DNA of 44,030 nucleotides from a virus, in IMG/VR virus record IMGVR_UViG_3300018915_000002; one strand, 5' to 3'. Position numbers and translations under genes: made by a program. This document shows positions 9,001 through 42,409 of the stretch, piece by piece. Below the pieces are notes generated by a model. That model saw only the letters and a program-made list of their open reading frames with translations. It was not told the origin of the DNA and made no database searches. Every line of letters starts with the position of its first letter. Position 1 is the first letter of the stretch.

Positions 9001-12000
9001 GATGCCGCTAAGGGATTTGTTGGCACGATCAATAAAATCGGTGGAGGCGCGATCGCAAAGCTTGCGGGTATCGTTGCGAAAGATATTGCCGTTGGATTCA
9101 AAGGCGAATTCCTCAATACCCTAGCCAAATCGATAAGAACCCTTTCAAATCGCCTTGGAATAGGGGCGAACAATCTCGCATTGGGCATGGAACGGATTGT
9201 TGGGAAAAACCCCTTTAGTGATGCTGTCCGTGGGTTCTCTGACTTTTTAAGGGCAAGAGGGAAGGCGACAGCCGACTTCCTCAAAGCCCAAGCACTTGTT
9301 CCGGATGATACGAGATCGCTTACTAAACTCATCAAAAATCGCACGATTGAGTTATTCAAGGTAATCGGCTCTACCATCCAATCCGCCCAAGCCGCAATCC
9401 AAGCTCAAGGGGGAGGGGTATTTGGGGCTATTCGAGCGCTATTTAGTGGACTTAAAGGCTTCTTTGGAAAACTCTTCAACCGCTCCTCAAACTCTCAAAT
9501 CGCTCAACTCGACAACCAAATTCAACAACAACGCGATCGCGCCGCTAGGGCGAGGGAACGACAGGGACGGGCACAGTCCTTGACTGATAATCGAGTCGAT
9601 CTTTGGGTAAGAGAAGCAGGTCAAAAAACGGCACAACGCCAGTACGATATAGCACGTCAAGCCGATGCTCAAGCGGCTCGATTGCAGCGACAACGATCCT
9701 TAACTGAAAAATTTTCAAATCCACGTTACTCTCCCGCAGGAGGCGATGCGGCGAGGATCGCGGGTAGCTTGATGGGACGCATCGGCAAAACCTATGAAGA
9801 AACAGCGACTAAATTAGGGCAGCGCATCACAGAACTCCGTGATCAAAGAACTGGAGTTCGCTCTCAACGACAAGGAGAGACGCTTGCGGGAGAGCAAATG
9901 TATACACCAAAATCTAGTGGTGGATGGCTGCCCCGTAATTTACGCCTAGATGACGGAGTTGTTTCTTCTACCGAATACATCCAATCCTTAACTACCAAGG
10001 CTTTTACCAAGCTAACTGAATCAGCTCACAGTACAACTTTAAAACTCAGTAACTATTTTAAAAATTCAGCCCTACGCTCAGAGACTGCATGGGAAGAAAG
10101 CGCCAACCACATCACCGGGAAATCGTGGTGGGCAATGACCAAACGCGCAGTCTGGACTGGAGTGAAGATTGTAACAAACCTCAATCATGGTGCCGCTGAC
10201 GTGACGGCAGCAGCTTGGGAACGTTCCCAGCAATCTGTCTCCCAAGACATGCATCAGATGGCACAAACTGCCCAACAGACAGGGCAGCAGATTAGCCAGA
10301 GCATGGGGCAAGCGGCACAAAAGTCCACAGGCTTCCTCTCCCACATAGGAAACAGTATAGGTCGAGTTGGCAAAGCGGGGATGGCGATTGGAGCAAGTGT
10401 TACCGCAGTCGGGTTCGGGGCGCAGACCGCGATGTACTCACTCTCCACTATGGGGCTAATTAGCGAAGAGACATCCCAGCAACTTAATAAATTCTTTGAA
10501 ATCTTCACGCTTATTGGTGCTGTTGGAGGTATCGCCACCCCAATCATTACCGCACTCGCCACCTCCTTCGGTGCCATTGGTTCCCTTGCTCTTGCTGCTA
10601 CAACAGGAGTCGCGGCAATCGGAGGTGCGATCGCGCCTCTCATTGGACTAGGAAGTGTAGCATTTGCCCCTTTCCTAGTGGGCATTGCAGCCGTTGCAGC
10701 AGCGATGGCAGGGTTGTACTTCGCTGTTCGGACTAACTTCCTCGGAATTGGTACGGTAGTCCGAGGAATAGGTAGCTTAATTAGTAACGCATTATCTGTT
10801 CCCATCGGCTTTATCGAATCAGCATGGCAGGGATTTGTAGATAGATTTGGCTCTAAATTGATGCCAATTATTCAACCTGCACTAGATATTGCTCAAGGAT
10901 TAATCAATGCTCTTAATCACAATCCCACCGAAAAGATTCCAGCCGCGTGGGATATTGCTGGAGAAAGAATCAAAGGTGTTCTTGATAGTATCTTAGGGGC
11001 AGGACAGGCTGTTGGCAATGGGTTGGTGAGTTTCTTTACACCAATTGTTTCGCTATTCAATCCTTTAACAAGTCTGTTTAAAAAGAAAGACAAACAGCAA
11101 CCAATAAGTACACTTCCAGAAGTAGAGACTACTCAAGAAAGTCCTGAAAAGGGTGTACTGGGTTCCATCATGGCAGCGATAAAAAGCCTTGTAATGTTGC
11201 CTGTTAATTTAATCAAAGGATTAGCAGACTGGGTGGCAAGTGTTATCACTGGCGTAATCAAAGGGGTTATTACTGCGATAACGGGACCATTGCAGTGGGC
11301 GGCTGAGGCTTTGCGACCACTGCAAATGCCGATCGGACAAATTGAATTGTTCTTCAAGAACCTGGTCAGCATTATCCAGTCGGTTATTTACCTCAATGGT
11401 GTAATGCGCCCTCTAGCGGCCAATGCCATTAGCGTCAATGCCACGATTAATGCGATCGCTCAGTTCTTCTATAGCCTGCGATCACTTATTCAGTCCGTTG
11501 AGTTCCTCTACTACCACGTCTTCAACCGTAAAGCCTTGGTGCAGGGGATGGGACAGGGAGAGGATGCGGTTGATCCAAGTAAGGGACCAACCAACCGTCG
11601 CACTGGAAATAAGTTAAGTGGGGGGTATGTTGAGACGGGTGGAAAGGCGATTCAAGACCTGTCACTAGGTGAAGCCGCGAAAGAATCGGTGGGCTTATTC
11701 AAGAACATCATGAGCATCAAGGAGAATACTGGTGCTGTCTTTGGTGGTTTTAAGACTGGATTAAATTGGGTAGGGAGTGCATGGCAGAACACTTCGAGGA
11801 TGATTAGAGGGGAAACCGGGACTCTTGTTGCCGACGCTGAAGTACAAGGCTACAACTTACAGAAAAATCTCTCCGAAGGTTCTCCGGGTCCAACATTCTG
11901 GATTCGCCAAAATTGGGAAAAGACAACCAAAGCCTTACAGGGGTGGATGGGTGACTTGTCTGGGAAGTCGAAAGAGGCGGGACAAGATATTGCGGCTAAT

Positions 12001-18000: not shown

Positions 18001-21000
18001 CGAGGAGGCATTGTAATTGGGGGCATTATCCTCAACTTCATTCTGCTCCCCATTCGGCTAATCAACGCCACGATTTACGGCATCTCGATGGGTTTCCATT
18101 CCGCCATGATGGGTGTAAATCAAGCCGTCAACAACCTTCTCCTTATGCCATTGAGTATTGCCATTGGGGTGGCATACGAGGTGGCATCGGCGATCGCGCA
18201 AGTTGGACAAACCATCACGAGGTTTATACTTGCGCCCTTCTTCGCGATTCAAAATGCCATCATGAGGGCGATTAGTCCGGTCGTGGACTTTGTGATGCGA
18301 TCAATTGGAATGATTGCTGGGGCTGCCGCCATCATCTTCACCGTACTGAATCCCGGACTTGTTATCGGGACGTTCATTGCCTTTGTTACCGGAGCAACAC
18401 TTGCTGCACGAGCCATTCAATTTATCCTCGGACTGCCACTTAAGGCGATCGCATTCTTATGGAAAAATACAGTCGGCAAGATTTTAGGCATTACCCAAGG
18501 ATTTGTAGAATCAACAAAAGGCTTTGGAGAACAGCTTAAGATCTTCCTCACTGATCCTACGGCTGCAATTCGAGAAAGCTGGAAGTCAACGATTGAATAT
18601 ATTCAATCCAAGTTATCTGAGCTTGGTATTACAGCGAGGGCAGAAGGACAAGATGTTGCCCGCTCACTAACGCAGGCCCTCCCTGGCACTCAAACGCCCA
18701 GACTACTTGCAGGGACAACGACTCCACCTGCACCGAGGATTTCTCCAGCTCCTCAGCTTGATGCCCATCTGCAAATGTTGGGGTTGAAGCAAGCGCCTCA
18801 AGATATGGCTGAGTTGAAGAGAGCTTATCGTCAGCAATCTAAAATAGCTCATCCAGATGCAGGTGGGGATGCAGAGCAATTCCATCGGGTGCAGAATGCC
18901 TATGATCAACTCAAGGCAAATATGGAATCTCCAACACGGAGTTCCGTGGTAGACACCGCCCCAATTGAACAGGTAGCGAACAAGGTTGGAACTTTATCAG
19001 AACGGATGAGGGGTTTAGGCTCCGGTTTCGGCTCAACTCTTTCCTCAATGGGTGGTGCCATTTCAAACTTCTCCCCTCAACTTGCCGCGCCATTTTTCAT
19101 CCTGAGTGACTTTATCGATGCGATATTGAGCGTAGAGGGCTTGTTACCAGGATTAAAGGCTTTCTTCGCCGGGAAGAAGGCAGCAGCCGTTGCTGATGCG
19201 GCTGTAACGACGGCTGCTAATGGTGCGATCGCATCCTCCAATCTACTTGTTGCTGGCACTTCCGCTTCTACGGCATTAACGGTTACGACGGGAGCCGCGA
19301 CTTCCGCGACTGCGGTAACAACGGAAGCGACGGCGGTGGGAGGAGCCAACAGTTTTATGGCGGCGACGTATGGAATGTTGGCAAATGCCGCACGTTGGGC
19401 TTATAGCCAAATCCTGCTACCGATCCTGCCCCTACTTCCTGCGATATTGGCAATTGTTGCAGTAGTAGGTCTTCTTTACCTCGCATTCAAGACCAATTTT
19501 CTTGGGATTGGAGATGTTATCCGAGGGGTGGTAGGCGGATTCCTCATGGTATTCGGCGTGGTCTGGGGAGTGATGAAAGGAGTATGGGATGCGATCGCCG
19601 AGGTGTTTGGAACCCTACTCAGTTCGTTTGGCGAGATCTTTTCGGCACTGAAAGAACTGGTGGGTGCGATCATGGCTCCCTTCGCTCCTCTGTTTGCGCT
19701 GTTTGGAGGAAGTGGATCAGGGGGTGGCTCACTAGGCGATGCGATTAATGCGACGGTAAAACTCATCCTTCTTCCCGTTAAACTGGTTGCTGATGCTCTG
19801 TCTTGGGTAATTCGAGCCATTACCTTCTTAGTGGTTGGAGCGATCAAGCTAGGTACAGCAATCGTCACCAAAGTTCTTAGCCCCATCACCCAAGCACTAA
19901 GCTTCCTTGCACCTGTGGTTCGACTGATTCGGACGGTCTTAGGGGGTATTGTCGGTGTAACCGCAGGCGTTGTCGTCCTGATTGGATTAATTGGCTTTAT
20001 TGCAACCGTACTCGTTCCTTTAATTGTTGCTGGGGCTACAGCGTTATTCGGCATGGTCATCTCTGGGATGACGTTTTTGATTACGGCAGCCATCCCGGTA
20101 CTGATTCAGGGATTGATTACAGTCGCAACAGTTGCGATACCACTACTGATTAATGCCTTCTTGTTCATTGCGACTGTGGCGATACCTGCAATTATTAGCG
20201 GATTGATTGCGATCGCCACCACTGCCATCCCACTAATCATGGCCGTTTTATCTGGCTTCATCCCCTTTGTTATGGCGGGATTTGCGTTTATCATCACAAC
20301 GATCATCCCTGCTGTTGTCGCTGGATTAGTATTCATCGCCACAGTGGCGATACCAGCAATCATCAGTGGAGTTATCGCCCTAGCTACTGCCGCTATCCCA
20401 TTACTGATTACATTCGCCCCAATCATCCTTGCAGTGCTAGCTATTGTTGCTGCGGTGTGGCTCTTAAAAATAGCCTTTGACTTTGTGTTCAAGAAGATTG
20501 CGGAATTCATTCCTTTTGCCGTGCAAGGATTTCAGCGTATTGCACCAATTATCCTGAGTCCGTTTGTGAAGTTATGGGAGTTGATTAAAAATGTCATCAG
20601 CGGGATTGGCAGCTTTTTTGGCAACATCGTTTCAGGTGTTAAAAACTTCTTCCAGAACATACCCTTAGTTGGTCGGTTATTTGGAGGAGGGCAATCAAAT
20701 GAAGGAAAAAATGAGTCCAATATTCAAGAGTTTGCAGGTGGAGGTTTAGTACAAGGACCAGGGGGGCAAGCCGTCCCAGTGGTTGCTCACGCTGGAGAGT
20801 TTGTTGTTAATCCAGAGGCAACTCGCCTAAACATAGGGGTACTAGAATACCTGAACGAAGGTGGGCAGTTAGCACTACCAACTCCTGGCGTGGGCATTAT
20901 GCCACCGATGCCCTTGATACTGCCTATTCCAGTTATTGTGCCAGTGGAGGGAGCAGGTAGTGGGACAACAGTGATAGTTGAGAATTTGAATGTAAACTTT

Positions 21001-23236: not shown

Positions 23237-24645
23237 TGCTAAACCCAGATCTCATCCTCCAACTCCAAAGCCAACTGGCGTTCGCTTCCACAGCAACTCG
23301 TGAATACCTTCAGTCACGGAGTTCCGTGGTCGAGGAGGAAGATGTGACTGAAGTAAACGATGATCCGTCCTCGGCAATTGAGGCGGCGCAGGGACTAGTT
23401 GAACGCGCAGAGGAATGGCGTGAAGTCCCCGTTGTACGAGACGCAACAGGACGATTTGCTTCAAAAGCCGCCTCTTCGGACGTAAAGGAGACAGATGAGG
23501 TGGAGGAGGTGGAGGAGGCAAGTGAGCCTGACCCACCGCTCATCCCAGTAGAAAAAATCCTTCAAGAGAAAGCAACGACCTTCTCCGCAGGCTTGAAGAG
23601 GTTTGAGAAGGAGCAGATTGAGATGGTGAATGAAACGATACTCAGTCGCGCCACAGATCGCATCAAGGATATAGCGGAACAACGCAAAGGGCTAGCAAGC
23701 GATCTAGTGGATATGATGTTTGGGAAATACGCCAAACAAGCCCGTAAGCAGCTTGCTGACTTGTGTAAGCCGATTAATCCCGACCTAAGCAAAGGGATTG
23801 AAGAAGACCCTTACGAAGAGGTTTCAGCGGACATCAAGCGGCTAACCCGACAAGCTAGCCTAGGAAATACCAAAGCTTTGATGCGTGACCTCCCAAAAGC
23901 CTTCCAGTATACAGTTGCGAAGTACAACAAGACTGTTGACGATCTTTCAAACGCAACTGGAGAGAACGCGGATTTAATGCACGCGGCAGGGAAGGCGGTT
24001 GCCCTTACAGTTCCGATCACGACATTCCTTGCCGCAAGCTTTGGTGCAGCAGCCGTTGCTGGGGTACTTACTCATGCGATCGCTGTTGCACCAATTTTTG
24101 CGGCTGGAGGAGCCGCCGCTGGTGCAGCAAAATTGGCAACTGGGATAGTGGTTGGCACAGCGGCGTGGAAAGTTAAGTCTAAATCGATTGAGGAAGGGCT
24201 GGATATTTTAGAAGTTGATAATAAGTTCACCCGGAAATTTCTGAAGTGGGCAACATTCCTTGCGGGAGATCTATCTATGTTGCCTACGCCCAATCCCCTT
24301 TCCTTGCCATCCACCTTATATGAACCTGGAACAGCATTGGATGCTCTGTCCGGTCTTGGTGAGGCTAGCAAAGCCGCATTTATGGGCGTAATTAACATCA
24401 CAGGGGAAGACCTACTGAACTTTGCCGTATTCCCAACATTAAATGGGATATTTGGTGATGCCTTGGCACCAGGGCGTAACCTCAACGGAAAAAGCTACTC
24501 CCAAATGAGGGAGTTGAAACGTGCGAGGGAAAAAGCTCAGAAGACGCTTAAAGAGATCAAGAAAAAGGCTTCCGACTACAACGAACAGTTTGATGAAGCC
24601 ATGTTAGCTTTACAAGAACTCCCCGATTTGGAGGTGGCAGCTTGA
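23236..24645 (+). CDS. Hypothetical protein, shared-leader paralog family (copy 3)
   Basis: 469 aa; TAATG coupling; EEWREVPVVRDATGRFAS; Ala/Gly-rich hydrophobic hairpin. Confidence 0.85.
   Translation: MLNPDLILQLQSQLAFASTATREYLQSRSSVVEEEDVTEVNDDPSSAIEAAQGLVERAEEWREVPVVRDATGRFASKAASSDVKETDEVEEVEEASEPDPPLIPVEKILQEKATTFSAGLKRFEKEQIEMVNETILSRATDRIKDIAEQRKGLASDLVDMMFGKYAKQARKQLADLCKPINPDLSKGIEEDPYEEVSADIKRLTRQASLGNTKALMRDLPKAFQYTVAKYNKTVDDLSNATGENADLMHAAGKAVALTVPITTFLAASFGAAAVAGVLTHAIAVAPIFAAGGAAAGAAKLATGIVVGTAAWKVKSKSIEEGLDILEVDNKFTRKFLKWATFLAGDLSMLPTPNPLSLPSTLYEPGTALDALSGLGEASKAAFMGVINITGEDLLNFAVFPTLNGIFGDALAPGRNLNGKSYSQMRELKRAREKAQKTLKEIKKKASDYNEQFDEAMLALQELPDLEVAA
23315..23328. repeat. Palindrome CACGGAGTTCCGTG (in paralog 3)
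   Basis: Perfect consensus. Confidence 0.85.
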
Positions 24646-29121: not shown

Positions 29122-29135
29122 CACGGAGTTCCGTG
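29122..29135. repeat. Palindrome CACGGAGTTCCGTG (between convergent stops)
   Basis: Perfect consensus; fills most of a 17-bp intergenic gap. Confidence 0.85.
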
Positions 29136-29136
29136 A

Positions 29137-29634
29137 TCAAGACGCGACTTGGAACGCCTGATTCCAGAGTTGCCTAATGTCAACGGCATTACTGCCTTGA
29201 GTACGCGCTACGGGGGCAAATTCACGAACTTTCGTAGGCGTAGGCACTAGCGTTTCTTCCTGGAGGATGTCCTCCACCGCTTCACGCAAATACTTCGACA
29301 TCGTTGTCCCCTTCAGGTGGCAAAAAAGCTTGAACTTCTCCTTTGTTTCGGAGTCGATCAGAAACCTGATGTAGGAATCCGCTTTTTGAAGCCTCTCTTC
29401 GTAGTATTTTGTCCGAACCCCTTGTTTTGAGTGGGGTTCCATTGGCCCCTTTTTAACCAATTTAGGTAGATTAGCTCCTTCAAGCGCGGCGATCACCACG
29501 CCCGTCAAAAGGTCAGTCATCTTCCCGTGAGGACGGGCTTTTTTAAACTCGTCTTTCAAATAAGACGGGATACGGATACGGATATCGTCGTCTAGCATAG
29601 TGGGACTTCTGTATATTACATCTTGTTGCCACAT
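29137..29634 (-). CDS. Tandem ribbon-helix-helix DNA-binding protein
   Basis: Two RHH-like units: IRIRIPSYLKDEFKK...MTDLLTGVV and IRFLIDSETKEKFKLFCHLKGTTMSKYLREAV. True start may be ATG 29598. Confidence 0.7.
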   Translation of the reverse strand: MWQQDVIYRSPTMLDDDIRIRIPSYLKDEFKKARPHGKMTDLLTGVVIAALEGANLPKLVKKGPMEPHSKQGVRTKYYEERLQKADSYIRFLIDSETKEKFKLFCHLKGTTMSKYLREAVEDILQEETLVPTPTKVREFAPVARTQGSNAVDIRQLWNQAFQVAS

Positions 29635-30357: not shown

Positions 30358-31386
30358 TTAGCGCAGGGCGCTAACAATCTGTTTCAACACTTGCTCTTGC
30401 TTGCTTCGCTTAGAGCCAAGCCACAGTGAATTTACGTGTCCTGAGGCTCCGCCGCGTTGGGCGGAATGGTGGTTGTAGTACTCCGTAGTGGAGTTTACTA
30501 AACCCCACGCGGTTTGATACGAGCTGAGTAGTTCGCTGCCAATCGCTGCACCGCAGTAGAGATCAAGTACTTCTTGAACAGCTTTTGGCTGTTCTTCAAG
30601 TTTCTTCTCTTTGTCACCAAGGATTTTGATGACCAATGCGTGAGCGGCTGGCATATCAAGGGAGGTCTGAGACAAGAACTCAGCATCCTCCTTGAATTTA
30701 TCAAAGCCAGTTTTCGCTGACTCTAAAATCTTCGTAACGCGAACTTCTGAATAGGTAGAGGTATGGGCAATCACTTGCCCAGCGACTTTGACGGGTAGCA
30801 CTAACTGGTTAGCGCAGACGAGGCGAGGTGCCATCAAGTCCACCCTTGCTCCGCGCCCACTTTTGTGGGAATTGGTCAAGAGCAATTTGCCCTCGATAAT
30901 GTCGTCCCCAGGCAGGACGAAGCTTTGGTCGGTCTTAGCGACCGCAAAGATGATTCGTCCTGAATCTAATGATCCGAGGCGCTCCATCGTTAACTGCGAT
31001 TTCTCACAGAAACTGATGAAGCTGTTGACTACCTCTTTATTCTGGAATGGTTGCCAGCGGCGAGAAACTGTCCCTAAGTGGATTGGCTCCCCTCCATTGG
31101 GGTTCAGGCGATAAATGATGCGATCGCGATCAGAACCATACTTAAAGTCTGGCCCATACTTAATCCCATCCGCCATAAGAACATCCCAATCCAAGTTTGA
31201 GCGCTTGAGCAGCTCATCTACGTCACTTTTGCCGACAACCTCATTAACTGCCATGCCAACCCCGTGGTATAGCTTCTCGTCTATCTTGGACGTGTTCGCC
31301 AAGTTGTAAGTCCACGGAGTTACCGCGTTCTCTCTTTCGATGGTATCGATCAAGGACTGGTGGCTTTGGTTGTGATTTATGTTCAT
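30358..31386 (-). CDS. DUF932 family phage/plasmid protein (TIGR03299-like)
   Basis: Motifs LDWDV, PFQN, GSLDSGR, LLLTNSH..G, RLVCANQL, HT, TAWGLVNSTTEY. Confidence 0.85.
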   Translation of the reverse strand: MNINHNQSHQSLIDTIERENAVTPWTYNLANTSKIDEKLYHGVGMAVNEVVGKSDVDELLKRSNLDWDVLMADGIKYGPDFKYGSDRDRIIYRLNPNGGEPIHLGTVSRRWQPFQNKEVVNSFISFCEKSQLTMERLGSLDSGRIIFAVAKTDQSFVLPGDDIIEGKLLLTNSHKSGRGARVDLMAPRLVCANQLVLPVKVAGQVIAHTSTYSEVRVTKILESAKTGFDKFKEDAEFLSQTSLDMPAAHALVIKILGDKEKKLEEQPKAVQEVLDLYCGAAIGSELLSSYQTAWGLVNSTTEYYNHHSAQRGGASGHVNSLWLGSKRSKQEQVLKQIVSALR

Positions 31387-31430
31387 GGTTTTTGCTTTGA
31401 AAAAATATGTGATTTTGTGGTCACACTGTT

Positions 31431-31439
31431 ATTATAACA
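31431..31439 (-). promoter_or_regulatory. Extended -10 promoter TGTTATAAT
   Basis: In the AT-rich intergenic region, ~45 nt upstream of the DUF932 ATG. Confidence 0.6.
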
Positions 31440-31479
31440 AATAAATTAAAATATTCTGAAAAAGTTCGCAAAAAACCTG

Positions 31480-31689
31480 TCACGGAGATCCGTGGCAGGG
31501 TGCCTTGTCATCGCCATCAATTTGACAACCTTCGTGGCTGTAGCCAATGAATCGGTCATTGACATACATGTATGCCCAGCGCTGGCTAGGCGAAACAACT
31601 AGTTTTTTGCCGCAAACCAAGCAGTAATTTCCTGGTGGGCGAGTCAAATATTCGTCTGAGAAAGCTTGCCCATCAAAGCGGCTAGGCAT
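31480..31689 (-). CDS. Small CxxC/HxxC putative Zn-binding protein
   Basis: 69 aa; TAATG coupling to the upstream gene; CLVC...HEGC. Confidence 0.6.
   Translation of the reverse strand: MPSRFDGQAFSDEYLTRPPGNYCLVCGKKLVVSPSQRWAYMYVNDRFIGYSHEGCQIDGDDKAPCHGSP
31481..31494. repeat. Palindrome CACGGAGATCCGTG
   Basis: Perfect consensus, upstream of the DUF932 promoter. Confidence 0.85.
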
Positions 31690-32078
31690 TAAAAATAGAC
31701 CATATTTGCGACATCACGAAGCGCGATCGCAACATCTGCTGGCACTCCATAAGCTCCAGTACTCGATTCAATTCTGTCCCAGATGCTGGTCGCTGTGATA
31801 TCTGGTCTCTCCTCAGGATCGGGTGGGGTATAAAGTTGCAGCATCCCACCTTCCGTTGCGATCGGCGTTTCCCCGCGCCAGAGGTTTTCCCCAGTTGCGT
31901 ATTCTTCCTCTCCCCCTTGTCGCCAACGAACCAAGGTATACACACTCACTTGGGCGTATCCTGTCACTCGGTAGATGGTTCCTGGGGGGAGAGTACTCTG
32001 AGCGATCGCAGCGGCTGTTCCGCCAATACCGTCAGGAATCTGCTCAAGACGACAGAAGAATGGAAAGGGTTTTAGCAT
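31689..32078 (-). CDS. Hypothetical protein
   Basis: 129-aa ORF in a tightly packed minus-strand operon. Confidence 0.65.
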   Translation of the reverse strand: MLKPFPFFCRLEQIPDGIGGTAAAIAQSTLPPGTIYRVTGYAQVSVYTLVRWRQGGEEEYATGENLWRGETPIATEGGMLQLYTPPDPEERPDITATSIWDRIESSTGAYGVPADVAIALRDVANMVYF

Positions 32079-32094
32079 GAACGACCGCTAAAAT

Positions 32095-32457
32095 TTAAGT
32101 GATTGCTTTGTTTTCTAAGTCAACATAATCCGCAACTTTTTCCTTTGCCTGCATTAGCAGAATAACCGCGTCCGTTAGCAACGGATGAGCGCCAGAACCT
32201 TCAACGGCTTGGATAGCTTGATGAATTACCATCTCAGCCGGAGTCAGCAAATCAAGTTGATTGCGACGTGGGATTTGAGAGTATTTGTCTTGATGCTCAA
32301 ACGAACTAATTAATGGGTAGTCAGATTGAATCCTTCGCATAGGGACAATATCTTTAAGCTGTTGTTCGTACTGGTCATATACCGAGGGTTCGTAAGTTTT
32401 GATTTCGGTAATGGGTAATGGGGTTGCGAGTTCCGAATGTTCGGGATTGTCTTGCAT
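32095..32457 (-). CDS. Hypothetical phage protein
   Basis: 120 aa; helical C-terminal domain IPRRNQLDLLTPAE...HPLLTDAVILL...VADYVD. Confidence 0.7.
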   Translation of the reverse strand: MQDNPEHSELATPLPITEIKTYEPSVYDQYEQQLKDIVPMRRIQSDYPLISSFEHQDKYSQIPRRNQLDLLTPAEMVIHQAIQAVEGSGAHPLLTDAVILLMQAKEKVADYVDLENKAIT

Positions 32458-32484
32458 TCTTTTGGTTTGTGAATAACGGCTTCT

Positions 32485-33225
32485 TTAGCTATTGTGTACC
32501 ACAAGCCAAGCCGCGATCGCCTCATAGCAATTCTTGGCACTTAGAACATCTTCAATCCCTGTCCCCTGAACGCCTGGGGCAGAATTGAAATCAATCGCCA
32601 GCCGTCGCTCCATTCCTTGCCACGCCACAAAGTCAATAGCGAAAATAGGATACTGACCAAAGGGACGGATTCGCTCTCCTTCGTCCCAGAACCCGAACAC
32701 TTCACTTAATACCTTGATGTCAGTGTCCACGGCATAGTTGGAGAGCCAACTGCCCTTACCTGTATATTTAAGCCACCAAGCGCGATCGCCAATTTGCAGG
32801 TAACGGTAGGATATCGCTTCCTCCTCTGGGTTCTCTGTTGTGGGGATAAATACCGAGTAAGGTAGTCCTCGATATTCCCTAAACGCTTTGACTGGATCAA
32901 CCAGTTGCTTCCCCTCTCCTCGATGCGCCAAATCATCGGTATACACGACGGCTTTGATATTGGAGAGCGATTTCACCTTGATGCTTTCCTGCCACCAGTT
33001 CATAAACTCCGGATCTCCCACTCTTCCAAAAAGAGGAGTGTCCAGTCCCGCCTCAGTTAGAAGCTGGAACTGTTCTAACTTTGACATCGTTGTCCGACTA
33101 TGGCGATTGAACACGACTACGGCTGGAGTGTCCCGCCGAGCAAACCAATGATCGTAATAATCTCTGTAGTCGGAATTTAAGTGAATATACGAGGGAAACA
33201 CGCGGGAGATTGATAGCCCCGTCAA
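32485..33225 (-). CDS. ATP-grasp-like protein, 5' end interrupted by an IS605 insertion
   Basis: SKLEQFQLLTEAGLDTP, AIDFV and IDFNSAPG resemble RimK-like ATP-grasp motifs. The annotated TTG start lies inside the IS left end. Confidence 0.6.
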   Translation of the reverse strand: MTGLSISRVFPSYIHLNSDYRDYYDHWFARRDTPAVVVFNRHSRTTMSKLEQFQLLTEAGLDTPLFGRVGDPEFMNWWQESIKVKSLSNIKAVVYTDDLAHRGEGKQLVDPVKAFREYRGLPYSVFIPTTENPEEEAISYRYLQIGDRAWWLKYTGKGSWLSNYAVDTDIKVLSEVFGFWDEGERIRPFGQYPIFAIDFVAWQGMERRLAIDFNSAPGVQGTGIEDVLSAKNCYEAIAAWLVVHNS

Positions 33226-33274
33226 TTCATTGCGGGGTGGAAAAGCGACTCGGCAGTTTTAACTGCCGTAAATA

Positions 33275-33679
33275 CTAGGAATGGTGTGGGTCATTAATGT
33301 ACTCAGTAATTTTAGCGGTAGTCACTTTACCCGTAGTGTCATAGAAATAAGAATGCGTCCAGAGGGTAGGTAGCTTAAGTAGATGAGGGAACTCTTTTCT
33401 AAGTAACCGAGATGAACGCCCTTTGAATGCCTTTACAACTGAGTTAATTGGTGTTTTTGGGTCGTACTCCACCAATAAGTGAACATGGTCTGGAGCGATT
33501 TCCATAGCCCTTATAATCCATCCCTTTTCTACTGCTACATCCGTAAGAATCTGACTTAACCTAAGCCTGACCTCTCCAACGAGGACAGGCTTTCTGCGTT
33601 TAGGTATCCAGACTAAATGGACATTTGCCATTCCCACTGAATGTCTAGTGCGGTTGTATTGCCGTTCTTGGGTATTCAT
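33275..33679 (-). CDS. tnpA: IS200-type Y1 HUH transposase
   Basis: HLVWIPKRRK, DHVHLL (HUH), KGRSSR, LW..SY, EYI. Confidence 0.95.
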   Translation of the reverse strand: MNTQERQYNRTRHSVGMANVHLVWIPKRRKPVLVGEVRLRLSQILTDVAVEKGWIIRAMEIAPDHVHLLVEYDPKTPINSVVKAFKGRSSRLLRKEFPHLLKLPTLWTHSYFYDTTGKVTTAKITEYINDPHHS

Positions 33680-33742
33680 TTACTTAGAAATGCGGTACAC
33701 TCTTATTGTATATAAGTAACGTCCTTCAACAGGAGCAAGTTT

Positions 33743-35125
33743 TTGCCTCGTTCCCAAACCCCATCATTTGTTGCTACCCTGCCGCTAAGAACCTCCAGCT
33801 CCGACGAGAAAGAACTAGAGGCAAGATTCAATGCAGCACAGAACTTATATAACGCTGTCTTAAGTGAATCTAAAAAGCGGTTGGAATTGGTACGCAATAG
33901 TGAGGCTTATTCTGAGGCAAGAAGTACCCCCAAGAAAGACAAGAAGCTTCGTTCCGAGCGGTTTAAAACAGCAAGAGCAGCTTACCGTTACTCTGAATAT
34001 GACCTGCATGAGTTTGCCGCACGTACAGCCAAAGCATCAAAATGGATAGCCCAGAAAGTAGATGCTCAAGCAGTGCAGACAATTGCGACTCGTGCCTTCA
34101 AGGCATCTGAACGGATGTTAGTCGGCAACGCCAAGAAGGTCAGATTCAAGGGGAAGGGACGCTACCGCTCAGTTGAGGGGAAAACCAATAAACAGGGCAT
34201 TCGGTTCAAGGATGAATGTTTGGTTTGGGGTAAACTTCAGATTCCCATCCTCATTGACAAGAATGACCCTGTTGTCCTGCATTCTCTGGGTTCTCCTATT
34301 AAGTTCTGTCGGGTTGTCAGGAAGAACATCAAAGGTAGACAGCGCTGGTATATCCAGCTTGTCTGTGAAGGTTCTCCTTATGTCAAACCCAAGAACAAGT
34401 TAGGAGAAGGAGTGGTCGGGGTTGACCTTAATGTTTCTGCCGCTGGGATTGTTTCTGACCAAGAAGCATCTCTTTCTAGTTTCTGCTCAGAACTTGAGTA
34501 TCGAGAGCAAGAAATCAAGAGACTTCAGCGGCAAAACTCTCGACAACTTCGTGCCAACAATCCCCAGAATTACGAACCAGACTTTAAGGCTCGACGGGGA
34601 AACAAAACCGTAACTAAAAAAGGAAAGGTCAAGAAAGGTTCTAAACAGTGGAGCCGCAGCAAGCGTTACCTCAAAATCCAAGCCAAAAAAGCAGAGATTC
34701 AGAGGTGTCAACAAGAACACCGGAAATCTCTGCATGGGCAGTTGGTGAATGAGGTTATTCGCCAAGGCAACCACTTCAAAATGGAAAAGGTTTCTGTCAA
34801 GGCGTGGCAGAAGAACTGGGGGAAACAGATTGGTTATAAAGCCCCAGGAGAATTCCAATCCCGCTTAGTCCGCAAGGCTGAAAGTGCTGGCGGACAAGTG
34901 GACAAGTTTTCTTGCCAAAAAACAAAACTCTCCCAAACTTGTGTGTGTGGGAGAGTTGAGAAAAAGTCGCTGTCTCAACGCATTCATCTGTGTGAGTGCG
35001 GAGTAAAAGTTAAACGAGATGTACTGAGCGCATTTCTGGCAAGAAGCGTCACTGACGATAGTCTCATCATGCCCTCAGTCCTTGATGACTGGGGAAGGTT
35101 GGAAACAGCGCTTAGGCAGGTATGA
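33743..35125 (+). CDS. tnpB: RNA-guided nuclease TnpB
   Basis: RuvC-I GVDLN, RuvC-II MEKVS, Zn finger CVCG...CECG, RuvC-III RDVLSA. Confidence 0.92.
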   Translation: MPRSQTPSFVATLPLRTSSSDEKELEARFNAAQNLYNAVLSESKKRLELVRNSEAYSEARSTPKKDKKLRSERFKTARAAYRYSEYDLHEFAARTAKASKWIAQKVDAQAVQTIATRAFKASERMLVGNAKKVRFKGKGRYRSVEGKTNKQGIRFKDECLVWGKLQIPILIDKNDPVVLHSLGSPIKFCRVVRKNIKGRQRWYIQLVCEGSPYVKPKNKLGEGVVGVDLNVSAAGIVSDQEASLSSFCSELEYREQEIKRLQRQNSRQLRANNPQNYEPDFKARRGNKTVTKKGKVKKGSKQWSRSKRYLKIQAKKAEIQRCQQEHRKSLHGQLVNEVIRQGNHFKMEKVSVKAWQKNWGKQIGYKAPGEFQSRLVRKAESAGGQVDKFSCQKTKLSQTCVCGRVEKKSLSQRIHLCECGVKVKRDVLSAFLARSVTDDSLIMPSVLDDWGRLETALRQV

Positions 35126-35311
35126 TGAGTAGCAAGTTGCGAGCAAGTAAGCGTTGCCGAAAGCAGGAAATGTCAGTTTTCCTCAGAGCAATTCTGCCTG
35201 AAAGTCTTCAAGAAGTAAGGGAGTCGAAGGCAACAGGTCAAACGAAACCTTATGTATTGAAGAACCCCCGTTTTTCTAAAACGGGGAGTTCTCAGACCAC
35301 GGAACTCCGTG
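35126..35311 (+). ncRNA. Predicted TnpB omega/reRNA (right-end scaffold plus flank-derived guide 35296-35311)
   Basis: Inferred from established TnpB biology; 5' boundary unknown. Confidence 0.5.
35298..35311. repeat. Palindrome CACGGAACTCCGTG (abutting the IS right end)
   Basis: Perfect consensus. Confidence 0.85.
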
Positions 35312-35312
35312 C

Positions 35313-35636
35313 CTAAACATCTGGCAATTCTACCGTTTTTCCTGCGAGTGAGTGAGTGCAGTCGTCGAGGAAGCGAATCATGCCATCTTCCACAAAACTG
35401 TGGCACCGGAAGATCAGTTCCCCACTATCCTTTTGTGCCTTGGCATTAATTGAAGGGAAGAAGGTCGGTTTATCGAAACTGCCTGTAAACGCCCAGGAGG
35501 CTCCCATCGCATTCTTGTAGGGAGAGATGTAAACTTCGTGGCTCATCCCACAGCCAGGACAGTCGAACATATAGGCGACTGTCTTGAGTACGCCATTCTC
35601 TTCATCTGGTTCCTGGATGGATAGTAGTTTAGCCAT
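35313..35636 (-). CDS. DUF6527-like Zn-binding protein
   Basis: FDCPGCGMSH, W.FTGS.DKPTFFPSI, CHSFVEDG.I.FLDDCTHSLAG. Confidence 0.75.
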   Translation of the reverse strand: MAKLLSIQEPDEENGVLKTVAYMFDCPGCGMSHEVYISPYKNAMGASWAFTGSFDKPTFFPSINAKAQKDSGELIFRCHSFVEDGMIRFLDDCTHSLAGKTVELPDV

Positions 35637-35700
35637 GTTTAGATCGTGTGTAGCTCTCGTTCAGTCTATACACAGCCTACACACAGAGTAAACACCATCT
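35636..35700 (-). repeat. ~65-bp 5'-UTR repeat element, copy A
   Basis: Ungapped 52/65 identity with 36838-36902. Confidence 0.8.
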
Positions 35701-36139
35701 AACTCACCGAATCCGCAAATGCGATCGCCATCCGCTTGCAGTCGTCCAATGTTTTGGCTTTGAAGCCAATGGGAAGGGAGCGATCAGCTTCTGGATGTTC
35801 TTTCAAATACGCCTTAGTCCAACCGGAAGAGGCTGTACAATCCCCCTTTTTAACAACGTCTCCGACACTGAAGCCACACAAAGCCCTATGACTCCAGCCG
35901 TACCACTGCTGTCCTTCAGCAGAAAACCCGATGGAGCAAACTTGGTTACCGGGAATGCATTCAGGCTCAATTCCTAACCCATAAAGGAAACCAGCAGTAT
36001 CAAGGTCGCCAATATATTCACCCTTCTGGGTATACGTTGATTCCACTTCTACGGGTTCATCTTCCCCGTAAGTTAATTTTTCCTTCCTAATTTCAAACCC
36101 TCTAGCGTCTTGCCGTGACTCAATTACATCTCGCTGCAT
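35699..36139 (-). CDS. Hypothetical phage protein
   Basis: 146 aa; CSIGFS...WYGWSHRA.CGF.VGD...MAIAFADSVS. Confidence 0.75.
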   Translation of the reverse strand: MQRDVIESRQDARGFEIRKEKLTYGEDEPVEVESTYTQKGEYIGDLDTAGFLYGLGIEPECIPGNQVCSIGFSAEGQQWYGWSHRALCGFSVGDVVKKGDCTASSGWTKAYLKEHPEADRSLPIGFKAKTLDDCKRMAIAFADSVS

Positions 36140-36902: not shown

Positions 36903-36969
36903 GTATTCCAGTCACGTCTTTGTGCAAGCAAGTAACCTCTTATTCAGTGACATCCTCTGCCGCTAATTC

Positions 36970-38238
36970 TTACGAATATAGCGGCAGCTTCCCAACCTCA
37001 CAATTGGGCATTCCTACTTCATCCGGAGTGCAACCACTTAACCGTCGATAGGCAGCCACCGTGAGTCCCACGGCAGTTAATGCTTTATGCAAAACATTGA
37101 TTGCGGCATTTTCATCTCTGTCCATTTCCAGACTACACTTTGGGCATTCATGAAGCCGAACAGCTAACGTCTTGGGTACTTTAGTGCCGCAACTAGAACA
37201 ATCTACTGTGGTGTTGTGGGGGCTGACCTTAACAAGATCTACGCCGCATCTTAGTGCCACTGCTTCTAATATTGCCAGGAACTTACCCCAAGCCACATCG
37301 TAAATTGATTTAGCTAAACGTGTTTTAGCTAATCCCTTAATGTTTAAGTCTTCAACAGCTATTAAGTCATACTTTTTGACAAGTTGATGAGCGACATTGT
37401 AATGAAACATCTCTCGCTTCCTACCTATGCGTTGGTGGATGCGAGAGATTTTTTCTTTTTGAGCTTGCGCGTTAATAGAACTAGGTACTTTCTTGGCTAA
37501 GCGCTTCTGTTGACGAGCAAGGTGCTTCTGGGTTTTTCTATAGTGTTGTTGGACTTCTACAGATTCACCTTCAGATGTTACGAGAAAAGACTTGAGTCCT
37601 AGGTCAACACCTACTGCACTCTTAATTTCATCAATAGGCTTGGGACTTGGGATAGAATCGTCTTCTAGGGAAACAGCGATGTACCATCCATCAGCTTTCT
37701 TGACGATAGTTGCAGTTTTTAACTCAAATCCGTCAGGGAGTGGACGGTGCATAATGACCGGCATTGACCCTATCTTGGATAAGGTTAAAACACCATCATC
37801 AATCTTGTTTACTCCAGCTTTTGGACAGTTGATTCTGGGAAAGGTGAACGAACGCATTTCTCCTTTCTTTTTGAACCTAGGTCTACCCGCTTTCTTGCCC
37901 GACTTGTCAGGTTTTATCCACCTCTCCCAAGCTTTGTCTAGACGCTTGAGATTCTGCTGCTGAACTTCAGAGTGAATTTCTTTGTACGCAGGAAAGAGTT
38001 GTTTGGTTTGCTTTAGTTCTCCAGCTTGAAAGTTATATCCAGGAAACTTGTCAGGGATGTCGCCAATTGCTTCTGAAACTAAGCTGCATCTATCAATCTG
38101 GCATCGTGTTCTACGCAGCCAGTCAAATCGCTGTCCGAGGGCGTAGTTGAAATGCCACCTCAACAACTCTAGCCAGTCATCCATGATGGCGACTTGCTCA
38201 GTAGAAGGCTTAACTCTGTAGATGTGCGTTAGTCTCAT
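36970..38238 (-). CDS. tnpB: RNA-guided nuclease TnpB
   Basis: HTH_OrfB-like N-terminus, GVDLG, AVEDL, CSSC...CPKC, DRDENAAIN. Confidence 0.95.
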   Translation of the reverse strand: MRLTHIYRVKPSTEQVAIMDDWLELLRWHFNYALGQRFDWLRRTRCQIDRCSLVSEAIGDIPDKFPGYNFQAGELKQTKQLFPAYKEIHSEVQQQNLKRLDKAWERWIKPDKSGKKAGRPRFKKKGEMRSFTFPRINCPKAGVNKIDDGVLTLSKIGSMPVIMHRPLPDGFELKTATIVKKADGWYIAVSLEDDSIPSPKPIDEIKSAVGVDLGLKSFLVTSEGESVEVQQHYRKTQKHLARQQKRLAKKVPSSINAQAQKEKISRIHQRIGRKREMFHYNVAHQLVKKYDLIAVEDLNIKGLAKTRLAKSIYDVAWGKFLAILEAVALRCGVDLVKVSPHNTTVDCSSCGTKVPKTLAVRLHECPKCSLEMDRDENAAINVLHKALTAVGLTVAAYRRLSGCTPDEVGMPNCEVGKLPLYS

Positions 38239-38273
38239 GGGATATACTTTACATTAGTGTTTGGCTTAGTGCA

Positions 38274-38681
38274 ATGGCGTATCACATTACATCTGGAGCG
38301 TGTTACAGACTTCAGGTACATTTAGTGCTTGTCACCAAGTATCGGAAAAAGGTCATCAACAAAGAGATGCTTAATCGTTTGGAACAAATCTTCCGAGATA
38401 CCTGTTTTAAGTGGGAATCAAGCGTAGTGGAATTCAACGGAGAAGCAGACCACGTACACTTGTTGGTTGACTATAATCCCAAGGTGCAAATTAGTAAGTT
38501 TGTAAACAACTTAAAAACAGTTAGCAGTCGGCTAATCAGAAAAGAGTTTGCTAGTCATATTGAGCCGTTTTACTACAAGCCAGTATTTTGGACAGGGACT
38601 TATTTCGCTGCTAGCTGTGGTGGTGTAACGCTAGAGCAACTTAAAGCTTACGTCCAAAACCAAGAAGCTCCAGAAGAATAG
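38274..38681 (+). CDS. tnpA: IS200-type Y1 HUH transposase
   Basis: HLVLVTKYR, DHVHLL, KTVSSR, FW..TYF, AYVQNQ. Confidence 0.95.
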   Translation: MAYHITSGACYRLQVHLVLVTKYRKKVINKEMLNRLEQIFRDTCFKWESSVVEFNGEADHVHLLVDYNPKVQISKFVNNLKTVSSRLIRKEFASHIEPFYYKPVFWTGTYFAASCGGVTLEQLKAYVQNQEAPEE

Positions 38682-38760
38682 TGTTGCTACGCTCTTTTAT
38701 GCTGGCTTCAATTCCCCTGCCACTAAGCTTCGCTATAGTGGCAGTACCCTTTCAGCTATT

Positions 38761-39438
38761 TCAGATGGAATGTAAATCTTCTAATTCACATAAGTCCTTC
38801 TGAGTTTTCAACTCAGAAAATTCGTTTTTTAACAGAGGAACTGTATTTTTAAAGATTTGGACTAGTTGAGGGCTAAGAGAAAATCGCTCTGTATTTATTT
38901 CAATGCTGCGGTAGATGTCGCCATCACGATGTCTAGCGACAGCACAAATCCAGTCAACCAGCATCTCAATCACATCAAACAAGTTCATGTTATTCACAGA
39001 TGAGCAATACTCTTTTTGCTTTGTTCTCAAGAACTCCTGCATCTGCTCATATCCGTGTATGTCATCAGGCAAGACTTGGGCATTATCAATTGCCCACTGT
39101 GCCATTAGAAGATAGGTATTAATTGATTCACTCTCAGGGCAAGGCTGAAAAAACTCTGGATGGTGACGGTTATGAGCGTAGTGATTGTCTAGGGCTGGTT
39201 TCATCCCCTCTAAAAATCCTTTGTATTCCTCGCTACCGTATGTGCTAGTCGCTAGCTTAGGCGTATATTCGGTGAAGACCGAAACCTCAGGAGCAATCAA
39301 TTTGGTTCTATCGTGGGTAAACTGCCGACGCATCAACTCAATTTGGGCGCTGCCGAGCAACTGCATGACCAAATCAATGTGCTTCCAGGTCTCGGCGTTA
39401 GTGGCTTGTTCAGCTTGTGTTAATTCGTGTTCAGTCAT
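38761..39438 (-). CDS. DUF5662 / HD-like putative metal-dependent phosphohydrolase
   Basis: ATG at 39438. KHI...HDRTKL...YGSEEY...HYAHNRHHPEF...MNLFDVIEMLVDW. Stop codon supplied by the IS end. Confidence 0.75.
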   Translation of the reverse strand: MTEHELTQAEQATNAETWKHIDLVMQLLGSAQIELMRRQFTHDRTKLIAPEVSVFTEYTPKLATSTYGSEEYKGFLEGMKPALDNHYAHNRHHPEFFQPCPESESINTYLLMAQWAIDNAQVLPDDIHGYEQMQEFLRTKQKEYCSSVNNMNLFDVIEMLVDWICAVARHRDGDIYRSIEINTERFSLSPQLVQIFKNTVPLLKNEFSELKTQKDLCELEDLHSI

Positions 39439-39490: not shown

Positions 39491-41020
39491 CTAATTGAGA
39501 ACTCGATACAGGTTTTCTTGTCTTCCTCCGTAAACGGCATTAACAGCTTCAATGCCGTCCTCCCATCTGAATTTGTGCTTACCAGATGAATTAGAAAGAA
39601 CCTTTGCACAACCAGGGGCAGAGCAAACCCCAATGTGCTTTCCAGGCTGAATCCAGATGTCTCCCGGCACTGCTTCTGCTCTAGTGATCTTTCTCCCTCG
39701 TCCACCAGTAAGTGCAGCTTCACAAGCGGCTACAGCGACAGGTACTCCCCAAGGCTCAATCGGAGCGCCTAGCATCTTCAATCCAGCAGGAATGATGCAA
39801 AATTTGTTCAAAGCATAAGCACAGCCGTTCCTACCTCCATCGGGTCCCGCAGCCGTATCAGCCTCTCTATTCGATTGCGCCGCTGCCCAAATCTTGGCAG
39901 GAATGTCTCCAGCAGCAGGAGCAGGTTGAGCGGCATCAGCTTGAGCTTGTTGCCCTGCGGCAATCTGTCCCGAATCACCTACTCCAAACACCTGGGGCTT
40001 AGGAGCATTCGGATCTGGTCTGTAGGCAACTAAATCGGCTTCTAGAGTGCGCCCAAAATAAAAAACAACCTCATCGACGGTAAAGGTTCCGTCAAGATCT
40101 TGCCCAAAGCCCTTCCCCTCAAACGTCACCTGAGCATCCAGTTTGAGAATGTCCGGCTGAGACGAAACATCAAGAGCGCACCTTAATATGTGCGATCGCT
40201 GGTTATCCAATGCCTGGATGCCGAGGGCATAGGAGAGGGCATCAAGTGGGGTGGTGGCTCCCGTTGCATTGAGAGTGCGCGTGGTTCCATCCCCTGTATC
40301 GATGCAACCTAGTCCGTAGTTGGAGGGCATGGGAGCTGCACCGACGGCAGTGGGGTCTAATCCGGATTTGAAGTAGGCGACTGCTTTCTGGCAAGCCTCA
40401 AGATAATGGCGAGTACCTGGTTGAGTGGTTCGGTGGACAAGTCCAGGGCTACCAGCATTCACGATACTGCGACAGTTTGCCCAATCCCCTTTTTCGGCAT
40501 AAGGGCGAATGTCTTTGTTCCCTGGTCCCCCACTCCAGTACCAGCAAGATATTTTGGCAGACAGTTCGGTGTCTTGAAGAATAATATCTGGATTATTAAC
40601 TACATCTACACCGAAAACCTTCTTTATCATCTGATACAGCTTTAGGTGCGTTGCTTGGATGAATCCTCGACCACGGTAAGGATCGTATTGACCCGTATAC
40701 TTGCTCGTGCCTTCTTTTTGGTTTTTAAAAGCACATTCCACGGCGATTGTGGTCAAAAATCCAACAAGCTGATTCTTGCTGATCATGTTTGCCGCCACCA
40801 TTGCCTTAGCAACAATGGGCCAGTTCTTCTCTACATCCTTGCGATTGACGTGTCCTCGGTAAACCGCCATGATGTCATCCACGCTCGGATAGAGCGCAGG
40901 AGCAGGTTTTGCCTGTGTTGTCCCACTAGCTCCCGCAGGGGTTGCGGAAGTTGCACCGGGAGTAGAAACCGCAGGCGTGGTAGGGCTTTGTGACGGTGCT
41001 AAAGGCTTGGTTTCAGGCAT
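39491..41020 (-). CDS. Virion-associated peptidoglycan hydrolase: GH19 lysozyme + baseplate-hub-like segment + NlpC/P60-like peptidase
   Basis: GH19: VEC..., YRGRGFIQAT, NNPDII, CWYW, IVN. Hub-like: GFGQDLDGTFTVDEVVF. NlpC/P60: GCAYALN...PGDI...HIGV...SNSS. Confidence 0.8.
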   Translation of the reverse strand: MPETKPLAPSQSPTTPAVSTPGATSATPAGASGTTQAKPAPALYPSVDDIMAVYRGHVNRKDVEKNWPIVAKAMVAANMISKNQLVGFLTTIAVECAFKNQKEGTSKYTGQYDPYRGRGFIQATHLKLYQMIKKVFGVDVVNNPDIILQDTELSAKISCWYWSGGPGNKDIRPYAEKGDWANCRSIVNAGSPGLVHRTTQPGTRHYLEACQKAVAYFKSGLDPTAVGAAPMPSNYGLGCIDTGDGTTRTLNATGATTPLDALSYALGIQALDNQRSHILRCALDVSSQPDILKLDAQVTFEGKGFGQDLDGTFTVDEVVFYFGRTLEADLVAYRPDPNAPKPQVFGVGDSGQIAAGQQAQADAAQPAPAAGDIPAKIWAAAQSNREADTAAGPDGGRNGCAYALNKFCIIPAGLKMLGAPIEPWGVPVAVAACEAALTGGRGRKITRAEAVPGDIWIQPGKHIGVCSAPGCAKVLSNSSGKHKFRWEDGIEAVNAVYGGRQENLYRVLN

Positions 41021-42050: not shown

Positions 42051-42056
42051 AGCGCC

Positions 42057-42070
42057 CACGGAACTCCGTG
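42057..42070. repeat. Palindrome CACGGAACTCCGTG
   Basis: Perfect consensus, 12 nt upstream of GTTACAAT. Confidence 0.85.
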
Positions 42071-42371: not shown

Positions 42372-42409
42372 AAAAAATCCATCACGGATCTTCGTGATGG
42401 ATTTCTTTT
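42372..42409. terminator. Bidirectional terminator between convergent genes
   Basis: AAATCCATCACG-GATCTT-CGTGATGGATTT with A/T tails; its apex is a variant of the 14-bp palindrome (42383-42396). Confidence 0.75.

Follow-up and report, generated by a model that had tools for sequence, protein, structure and literature searches.

An IS605-type element inserted beside a repeated palindrome in a phage-like contig, and the predicted reach of its TnpB guide

The DNA analysed here, referred to below as the window, is a stretch of 44,030 nucleotides and forms a piece of a 242,772-bp biocrust metagenome contig, which is cyanobacterial by its 35 HIP1 octamers and phage-like by its gene content. The window carries an intact IS605-type element (33191-35295) comprised of a transposase gene, tnpA, and a divergent tnpB gene (Table 1). 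The RuvC residues of TnpB (D228, E348 and D426), described as apparently intact in a preliminary description of this DNA, are all present in alignment, as are the zinc-finger cysteines C400/402/417/419 (CxC...CxC). The element is flanked by a DUF6527 gene on one side and by the body of an ATP-grasp-fold gene on the other. Further genes on the minus strand include a Tad6 anti-Thoeris gene (35699-36139; Pfam PF25188, E 7e-48), which shares an operon-like run with the split ATP-grasp gene and is located two genes upstream of it, a DUF932 gene (30358-31386) and a GH19 chitinase/lysozyme-type gene (39491-41020).

Table 1. Features of the element and its surroundings (window coordinates)
Feature	Position	Strand	Remarks
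Perfect 16-nt guide match	18935..18950	-	5' neighbour GTCT, no TAM; within the giant ORF
Perfect 16-nt guide match	23315..23330	-	5' neighbour CTCG, no TAM
ATP-grasp-fold (RimK-like) gene body, 235 codons	32485..33190	-	Reconstructed frame; model
Target tetranucleotide / predicted TAM ATAC	33187..33190	+	Remains 5' of the element; common to all close sister copies, base -5 variable
Left end	33191..33274	+	Left guide ATAG 33213-33216; subterminal hairpin 33217-33237; conserved in sister copies
tnpA, Y1 HUH transposase, 134 aa	33275..33679	-	Divergent from tnpB; Pfam Y1_Tnp, E 4e-36; open frame, HVH motif
tnpB, 460 aa	33743..35125	+	Pfam Cas12f1-like_TNB; homologues named TnpB
Predicted omegaRNA scaffold and right end	35126..35295	+	5' start may fall within tnpB
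Right-end parts	35262-35265; 35266-35286; 35292-35295	+	Right guide GAAC; hairpin; last bases TCAG; from sequence
Predicted 16-nt guide	35296..35311	+	Phage DNA flanking the right end; 16-nt flank rule taken from ISDra2
14-bp palindrome copy CACGGA-NN-TCCGTG	35298..35311	.	Fills guide positions 3-16
DUF6527 gene	35313..35636	-	Pfam PF20137; one base between its stop codon and the palindrome
Second, unrelated IS605-type element	36947..38769	-	tnpB 36970-38238 and tnpA 38274-38681 (Pfam); right end TCAC 36950-36947

The ends of the element were defined by comparison with related copies, which were found in cyanobacterial genomes, in metagenome contigs and in a further two or three phage-like contigs; full-length copies are 75-89% identical in DNA. 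Across 19 different right flanks the copies are alike up to TCAG and then diverge, the next base being A, T, G or C, and two short contigs end exactly at TCAG. On the left side all close copies start after ATAC, and the fifth base is variable. The 4-nt guides at the two ends covary across relatives with the motifs that they recognize: the left guide ATAG occurs with ATAC and GTAG with ACAC, while the right guide GAAC occurs with TCAG and GAAT with TCAA. At the sequence level, this covariation is that of IS608-type target selection by 4-nt DNA guides. The boundaries of the sister copies, together with the guide/target covariation, place the element at 33191-35295 and make ATAC the predicted TAM. 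The TAM and the right end put forward in the preliminary description, with TCAG followed directly by the 16-mer, agree with these results. A left cut after TACG was ruled out because the covarying GTAG-ACAC guide fixes the register, a five-base motif TATAC because the fifth base varies, and a right end one base further on because the next base varies. Insertions occur 3' of a fixed ATAC at independent sites, and when 33190 is joined to 35296 a reading frame is recovered with no target duplication. All the sequence tests that could be applied place the element in the IS200/IS605 family.

The 170 nt between tnpB and the right end are conserved in ten copies, and of the 49 consensus pairs in the alignment of these copies 12 have two-sided changes. 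The scaffold and right end fold with a z score of -2.8. A conserved and covarying right end is as expected of a working omegaRNA scaffold, which is predicted for this region.

Some variation among copies of the element was recorded. A loose end at window position 33194 in sample S2 (run X2) represents another insertion of the element with a different left flank that likewise ends in ATAC. Two other assemblies of the locus, with flanks identical to those of the window, have divergent patches inside the element (L181, window 33270-33398; L183, window 34313-34747). Identity in the patches is 95-97% to the sister copy of a 107-kb phage-like contig from the same study (L194), compared with only 85% to the window; the patches are either assembly chimeras or the result of recombination between elements of co-occurring phages. 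Another phage-like contig (L187) has two tnpB copies of the same clade 7 kb apart (1597-3163 and 9986-11553), both of which are devoid of tnpA and of a recognisable left end.

The empty site was reconstructed by joining 33190 to 35296. Read on the minus strand, the joint runs from the DUF6527 stop codon through a single base and the 14-bp palindrome to a GTG codon, so that the palindrome makes up nearly all of the 15-bp spacer between the DUF6527 and ATP-grasp genes. The element divides this GTG, the start codon: two of the codon's bases (G35297 and T35296) come from the right flank and one (G33190) from the left. A Shine-Dalgarno-like GGAG is contained within the palindrome (35308-35305, minus strand), 7 nt ahead of the split start codon. 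The reconstructed frame opens with MYIHL and aligns start to start with three homologues at 58-74% identity. The predicted structure of the reconstructed protein has the ATP-grasp fold (pLDDT 85), with RimK as its best match (E 2e-8). As reconstructed, then, the insertion interrupts the start codon of a phage gene preceded by a spacer that is nearly all palindrome. In the presence of the element, the starts that remain are a TTG within the left-end hairpin and an ATG 34 codons in, use of the latter resulting in the loss of a conserved N-terminal motif. Expression of the ATP-grasp gene would be reduced or lost. The loci of ATP-grasp homologues have neither the palindrome nor common neighbours.

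The palindrome is a repeated feature of the window. It has a 6-2-6 form and occurs in 13 copies, nine exact and four with one mismatch, or about one per 3.4 kb; order-3 Markov controls gave expectations of 0.0 exact and 0.05 one-mismatch copies. Eight of the 13 are situated at gene junctions, which comprise 3.7% of the window without its insertion sequences, and copies are also present within coding sequence. The palindrome looks like a dimer-binding site. A giant frame of 7029 codons (37-21126, plus strand), with internal repeats (about 1620-1710, 2160-2250 and 3110-3200), holds four copies in its coding sequence. At 31480-31494 one copy provides the stop codon of a 69-codon gene, and at 42374-42405 another is the tip of a longer terminator-like hairpin.

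Searches of viral records, 401 cyanobacterial genomes and protein clusters yielded no relative that shares this lattice of palindromes. The 401 cyanobacterial genomes contained no host lattice, with three single matches to the palindrome compared to seven for the control. Paired palindromes occur in unrelated virus records, which have only two or three clustered copies. One cyanobacterial virus record (L221:7897-7951) has a single pair 41 nt apart, and a group of GC-rich, unrelated proviruses (L220, L222-L225) has four or five tandem near-copies with a spacing of 21-22 nt.

In ISDra2, the last ~16 nt of the omegaRNA come from the right flank (PMC8612924). Since both ends of the element are fixed by the sister insertions, positions 3-16 of the predicted guide are the phage palindrome. 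The preliminary description had equated the guide with the palindrome itself; the palindrome is indeed inside the guide, but does not account for the whole of it. The two perfect minus-strand matches to the guide that had been listed are present, together with the one-mismatch matches at 13063 and 43416, and two further one-mismatch matches that had been missed were found at 29122-29137 (minus strand) and 42055-42070 (plus strand), with 5' neighbours CTTG and AGCG.

The binding and cutting of DNA by TnpB are TAM-dependent, the TAM being the target of the transposase, and in nature the enzyme acts on the donor joint that excision leaves behind (bioRxiv 10.1101/2023.03.14.532601). Dependence on the TAM and cutting of the donor joint were also found in another study (PMC8612924). 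The TAM used here was accordingly taken from the transposase target, and the 44-kb window was scanned for this motif and the guide. None of the 12 other palindrome copies in the window has ATAC beside it in either orientation. The 5' neighbours given in the preliminary description (GTCT and CTCG at the perfect matches, CTTC and ACCC at 13063 and 43416) are correct. The copy that comes closest to having a TAM matches three of the four motif bases and has 3-4 guide mismatches, and the best ATAC-adjacent guide match elsewhere in the window has six mismatches in 16. Within the 12-nt seed, no more than one mismatch is present in seven of the 12 other copies. Within the window, the full target, i.e. 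the predicted TAM followed by the guide sequence, is therefore confined to the element's own empty site, as judged from the sequence. By chance, 0.02 occurrences of ATAC beside the other copies are expected, so that no avoidance of self-cleavage needs to be invoked. Of the earlier suggestion that self-cleavage may be avoided, one part stands, namely that the other copies should escape cutting; avoidance as a selected trait was ruled out, the absence of ATAC being at the level of chance.

The probability that an insertion acquires such a guide depends on where insertions survive. When all ATAC sites are considered, with no correction for junctions, a palindrome falls in the first 16-20 nt after ATAC in 0.1-0.2% of insertions. 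Surviving insertions favour gene junctions, which hold most of the palindromes, and the adjacency is thus less unlikely than this figure: among junction positions, 1.4% (16 nt) to 2.9% (20 nt) give a palindrome-bearing guide. Only 13 ATAC sites are located at junctions, the insertion site among them. In a scan of this size, a chance event at the level of a few percent per phage is not remarkable. Association of independent insertion sequences with the palindrome, another point raised earlier, was not found: the palindrome is absent from all 19 distinct right flanks of sister insertions, which is a weak test of a preference because the sister loci are devoid of any palindrome, and from the flank of the second IS605-type element. 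In comparison with control ATAC flanks, the sister right flanks also show no excess of structure (Mann-Whitney p 0.77 and 0.27), which rules out a general preference of the element for hairpin flanks. The sequences of the sister insertions thus indicate that the element is not tied to the palindrome.

The second element serves as an internal control. Its guide is unrelated to the palindrome, the nearest copy of which is 120 bp away. Its bounds are taken from other copies, whose loose ends lie at 36947 and 38769/38770, the left boundary being approximate. Many related copies of it are present in the same samples.

A cause other than chance for the adjacency would be a phage protein that binds the palindrome and pauses replication forks; TnpA, inserting into single-stranded DNA at stalled forks, would be drawn to the nearest ATAC, and the content of the guide would be a by-product. 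Such recruitment of IS608 has been demonstrated at forks blocked by LacI-lacO, TetR-tetO and Tus-Ter (PMC5027513). The resemblance of the palindrome to a dimer-binding site, its presence in coding sequence as well as at junctions, the 2 nt that separate it from the element junction and its occurrence near the end of the second IS605-type element are consistent with this mechanism, and the likeness to IS608 at blocked forks extends to insertion near a probable protein-binding palindrome. However, the published effect is hundreds of bases wide and was obtained with operator arrays, so that an adjacency of 2 nt, far tighter than the published spread and observed in a single event, is not predicted by it. 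Moreover, with palindromes at this density and concentrated in few spacers, proximity is common anyway, and recruitment by a roadblock is considered doubtful. An extended version, in which the protein-bound palindrome attracts IS605 insertions and thereby programs guides repeatedly, with a TnpB of loose TAM requirement binding or cutting many copies in the phage or its rivals, is highly improbable.

The guide is self-complementary, as had been pointed out, and forms a hairpin of -6.6 kcal/mol with a 5-bp stem (four G-C pairs; positions 3-7 with 12-16) and a 4-nt loop. It could be supposed that this fold over the seed leaves TnpB weak or inactive and that it made the insertion tolerable in a genome rich in near-matches. 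In nine omegaRNA contexts the stem has a pairing probability of mostly 0.7-0.99, an equally good fold is formed by only 1.7% of control flanks, and the stem overlaps positions 1-12, which are required for cleavage by TnpB (PMC10097598). Cas12a, on the other hand, tolerated spacer folds of -5 to -11 kcal/mol, a range that includes the fold found here, and seed pairing was often dissolved (PMC7102956). Some dampening of TnpB by the hairpin is possible. A sister copy in another phage-like contig is flanked on its right by a 12-bp hairpin (L193:10158-10190), so its predicted guide would be sequestered too, and muting is not needed where the other palindrome copies have no TAM. A muted guide as the explanation of the insertion is accordingly rather unlikely.

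The proposal in the preliminary description that TnpB is poised against a repeated regulatory site, and the related idea that it is kept or used on many palindrome copies as a repressor of the whole lattice or a weapon against relatives, are not supported; such a function has the lowest probability of all the explanations considered. The two perfect and four one-mismatch guide matches in 44 kb and the close seed matches at other copies speak for it. The TAM, required for both binding and cutting, is absent from every one of those copies, and within the window the guide preceded by the motif belongs only to the element's own empty site. A domesticated repressor is also difficult to reconcile with an intact RuvC site, a tnpA gene and both ends, with 88% identity to mobile copies elsewhere that carry other guides, with the absence of the palindrome from the sister flanks, and with the failure to find a relative sharing the lattice in the records searched. 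TldRs are nuclease-dead and act in trans on a TAM-bearing target. Identity with a TldR was ruled out, since the three RuvC catalytic residues are present and tnpA and both ends are intact; nor does the element have the fixed guide and TAM-bearing trans target of a TldR, as sister guides differ and the window holds no second target. What the element shares with TldRs is a TnpB-family guide matching a regulatory-looking sequence in a phage, and TnpB has elsewhere been domesticated into repressors (bioRxiv 10.1101/2023.11.30.569447). If the palindrome attracted insertions, or if its other copies were acted on by TnpB, one chance insertion would create dozens of RNA-guided sites in the phage genome.

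The explanation that best fits these findings, with a probability of about 0.7, is an ordinary chance insertion of an IS605-type element at the junction ATAC, the TnpB of which cuts only excised or IS-free copies of that one site. Of the two alternatives offered in the preliminary description, this is the one favoured by the evidence. In a recent event, TnpA would have placed the element 3' of ATAC at the start of a non-essential ATP-grasp gene, the 15-bp upstream spacer of which is almost entirely one copy of the gene-junction palindrome. As the guide is whatever follows the right end, the predicted TnpB guide now contains the palindrome. Needing ATAC directly 5' of a guide match, TnpB would cut only the empty site of the element itself, either in copies from which the element has been excised or in IS-free siblings during co-infection, and repair from an IS-carrying copy would restore or spread the element by homing. 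Excision would rebuild the start codon and ribosome-binding site exactly, and its reversal by homing would therefore lock in the disruption of the ATP-grasp gene. The omegaRNA, guide length, TAM use, cleavage and homing are attributed to the element from what holds for other family members. In chromosomes, TnpB restores the element by recombination from an IS-carrying copy (bioRxiv 10.1101/2023.03.14.532601), and a TnpB-based drive against IS-free sibling plasmids has been described (Mears et al., bioRxiv 10.1101/2025.02.20.638934). Cutting of IS-free sibling phages is plausible by analogy; any TnpB is known to act in this way at the site of its own insertion, irrespective of the palindrome.

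The element shares with ISDra2, IS608 and ISGst2 a Y1 TnpA, a RuvC-containing TnpB, hairpin ends with 4-nt DNA guides and insertion 3' of a short motif without duplication; an RNA guide derived from the right flank and targeting of its own empty site are predicted as further likenesses. It differs from them in its cyanobacterial clade of 460-aa TnpBs, its location in a phage contig, the palindrome in its flank and the split start codon, and its motif is ATAC (end TCAG) as opposed to TTGAT in ISDra2 and TTAC in IS608. In the plasmid gene drive, an IS-carrying replicon cuts IS-free siblings at the empty site and converts or displaces them, as is predicted here; that study demonstrates the drive for plasmids and does not mention phages (bioRxiv 10.1101/2025.02.20.638934), to which we extend it by inference. 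The observation is real and is an example of known biology; what is new is a TnpB clade with the motif ATAC and clearly defined ends, here carried by a phage. The knock-out of the ATP-grasp gene, which precise excision would reverse, is predicted to be locked in by homing. The locus also provides a natural test case of whether a self-paired guide weakens TnpB and of the stringency with which the TAM shields a genome rich in guide matches.

IS-free siblings and products of excision were sought in several data sets. All six assemblies of the locus, apparently from one biocrust study, carry the element with identical flanks. The joint of 33190 to 35296 was present in no contig of four DNA runs, contigs being prone to drop rare variants, and the empty-site pattern had no match in viral contigs or in 232 loci. 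The right-end pattern had no match in metagenome and viral contigs and only the known copy in the 401 cyanobacterial genomes. A run containing 60% of the sequence words was rejected as an IS-free sibling, as it covers the element in pieces at low depth. Five flanking phage proteins form singleton clusters, and hence no close sibling is on record. A contig of run X5, from a second study, contains the ends of both the DUF932 and DUF6527 genes (window 30434 to 35319) with intervening sequence, and may come from a distant relative in which the genes are ordered alike.
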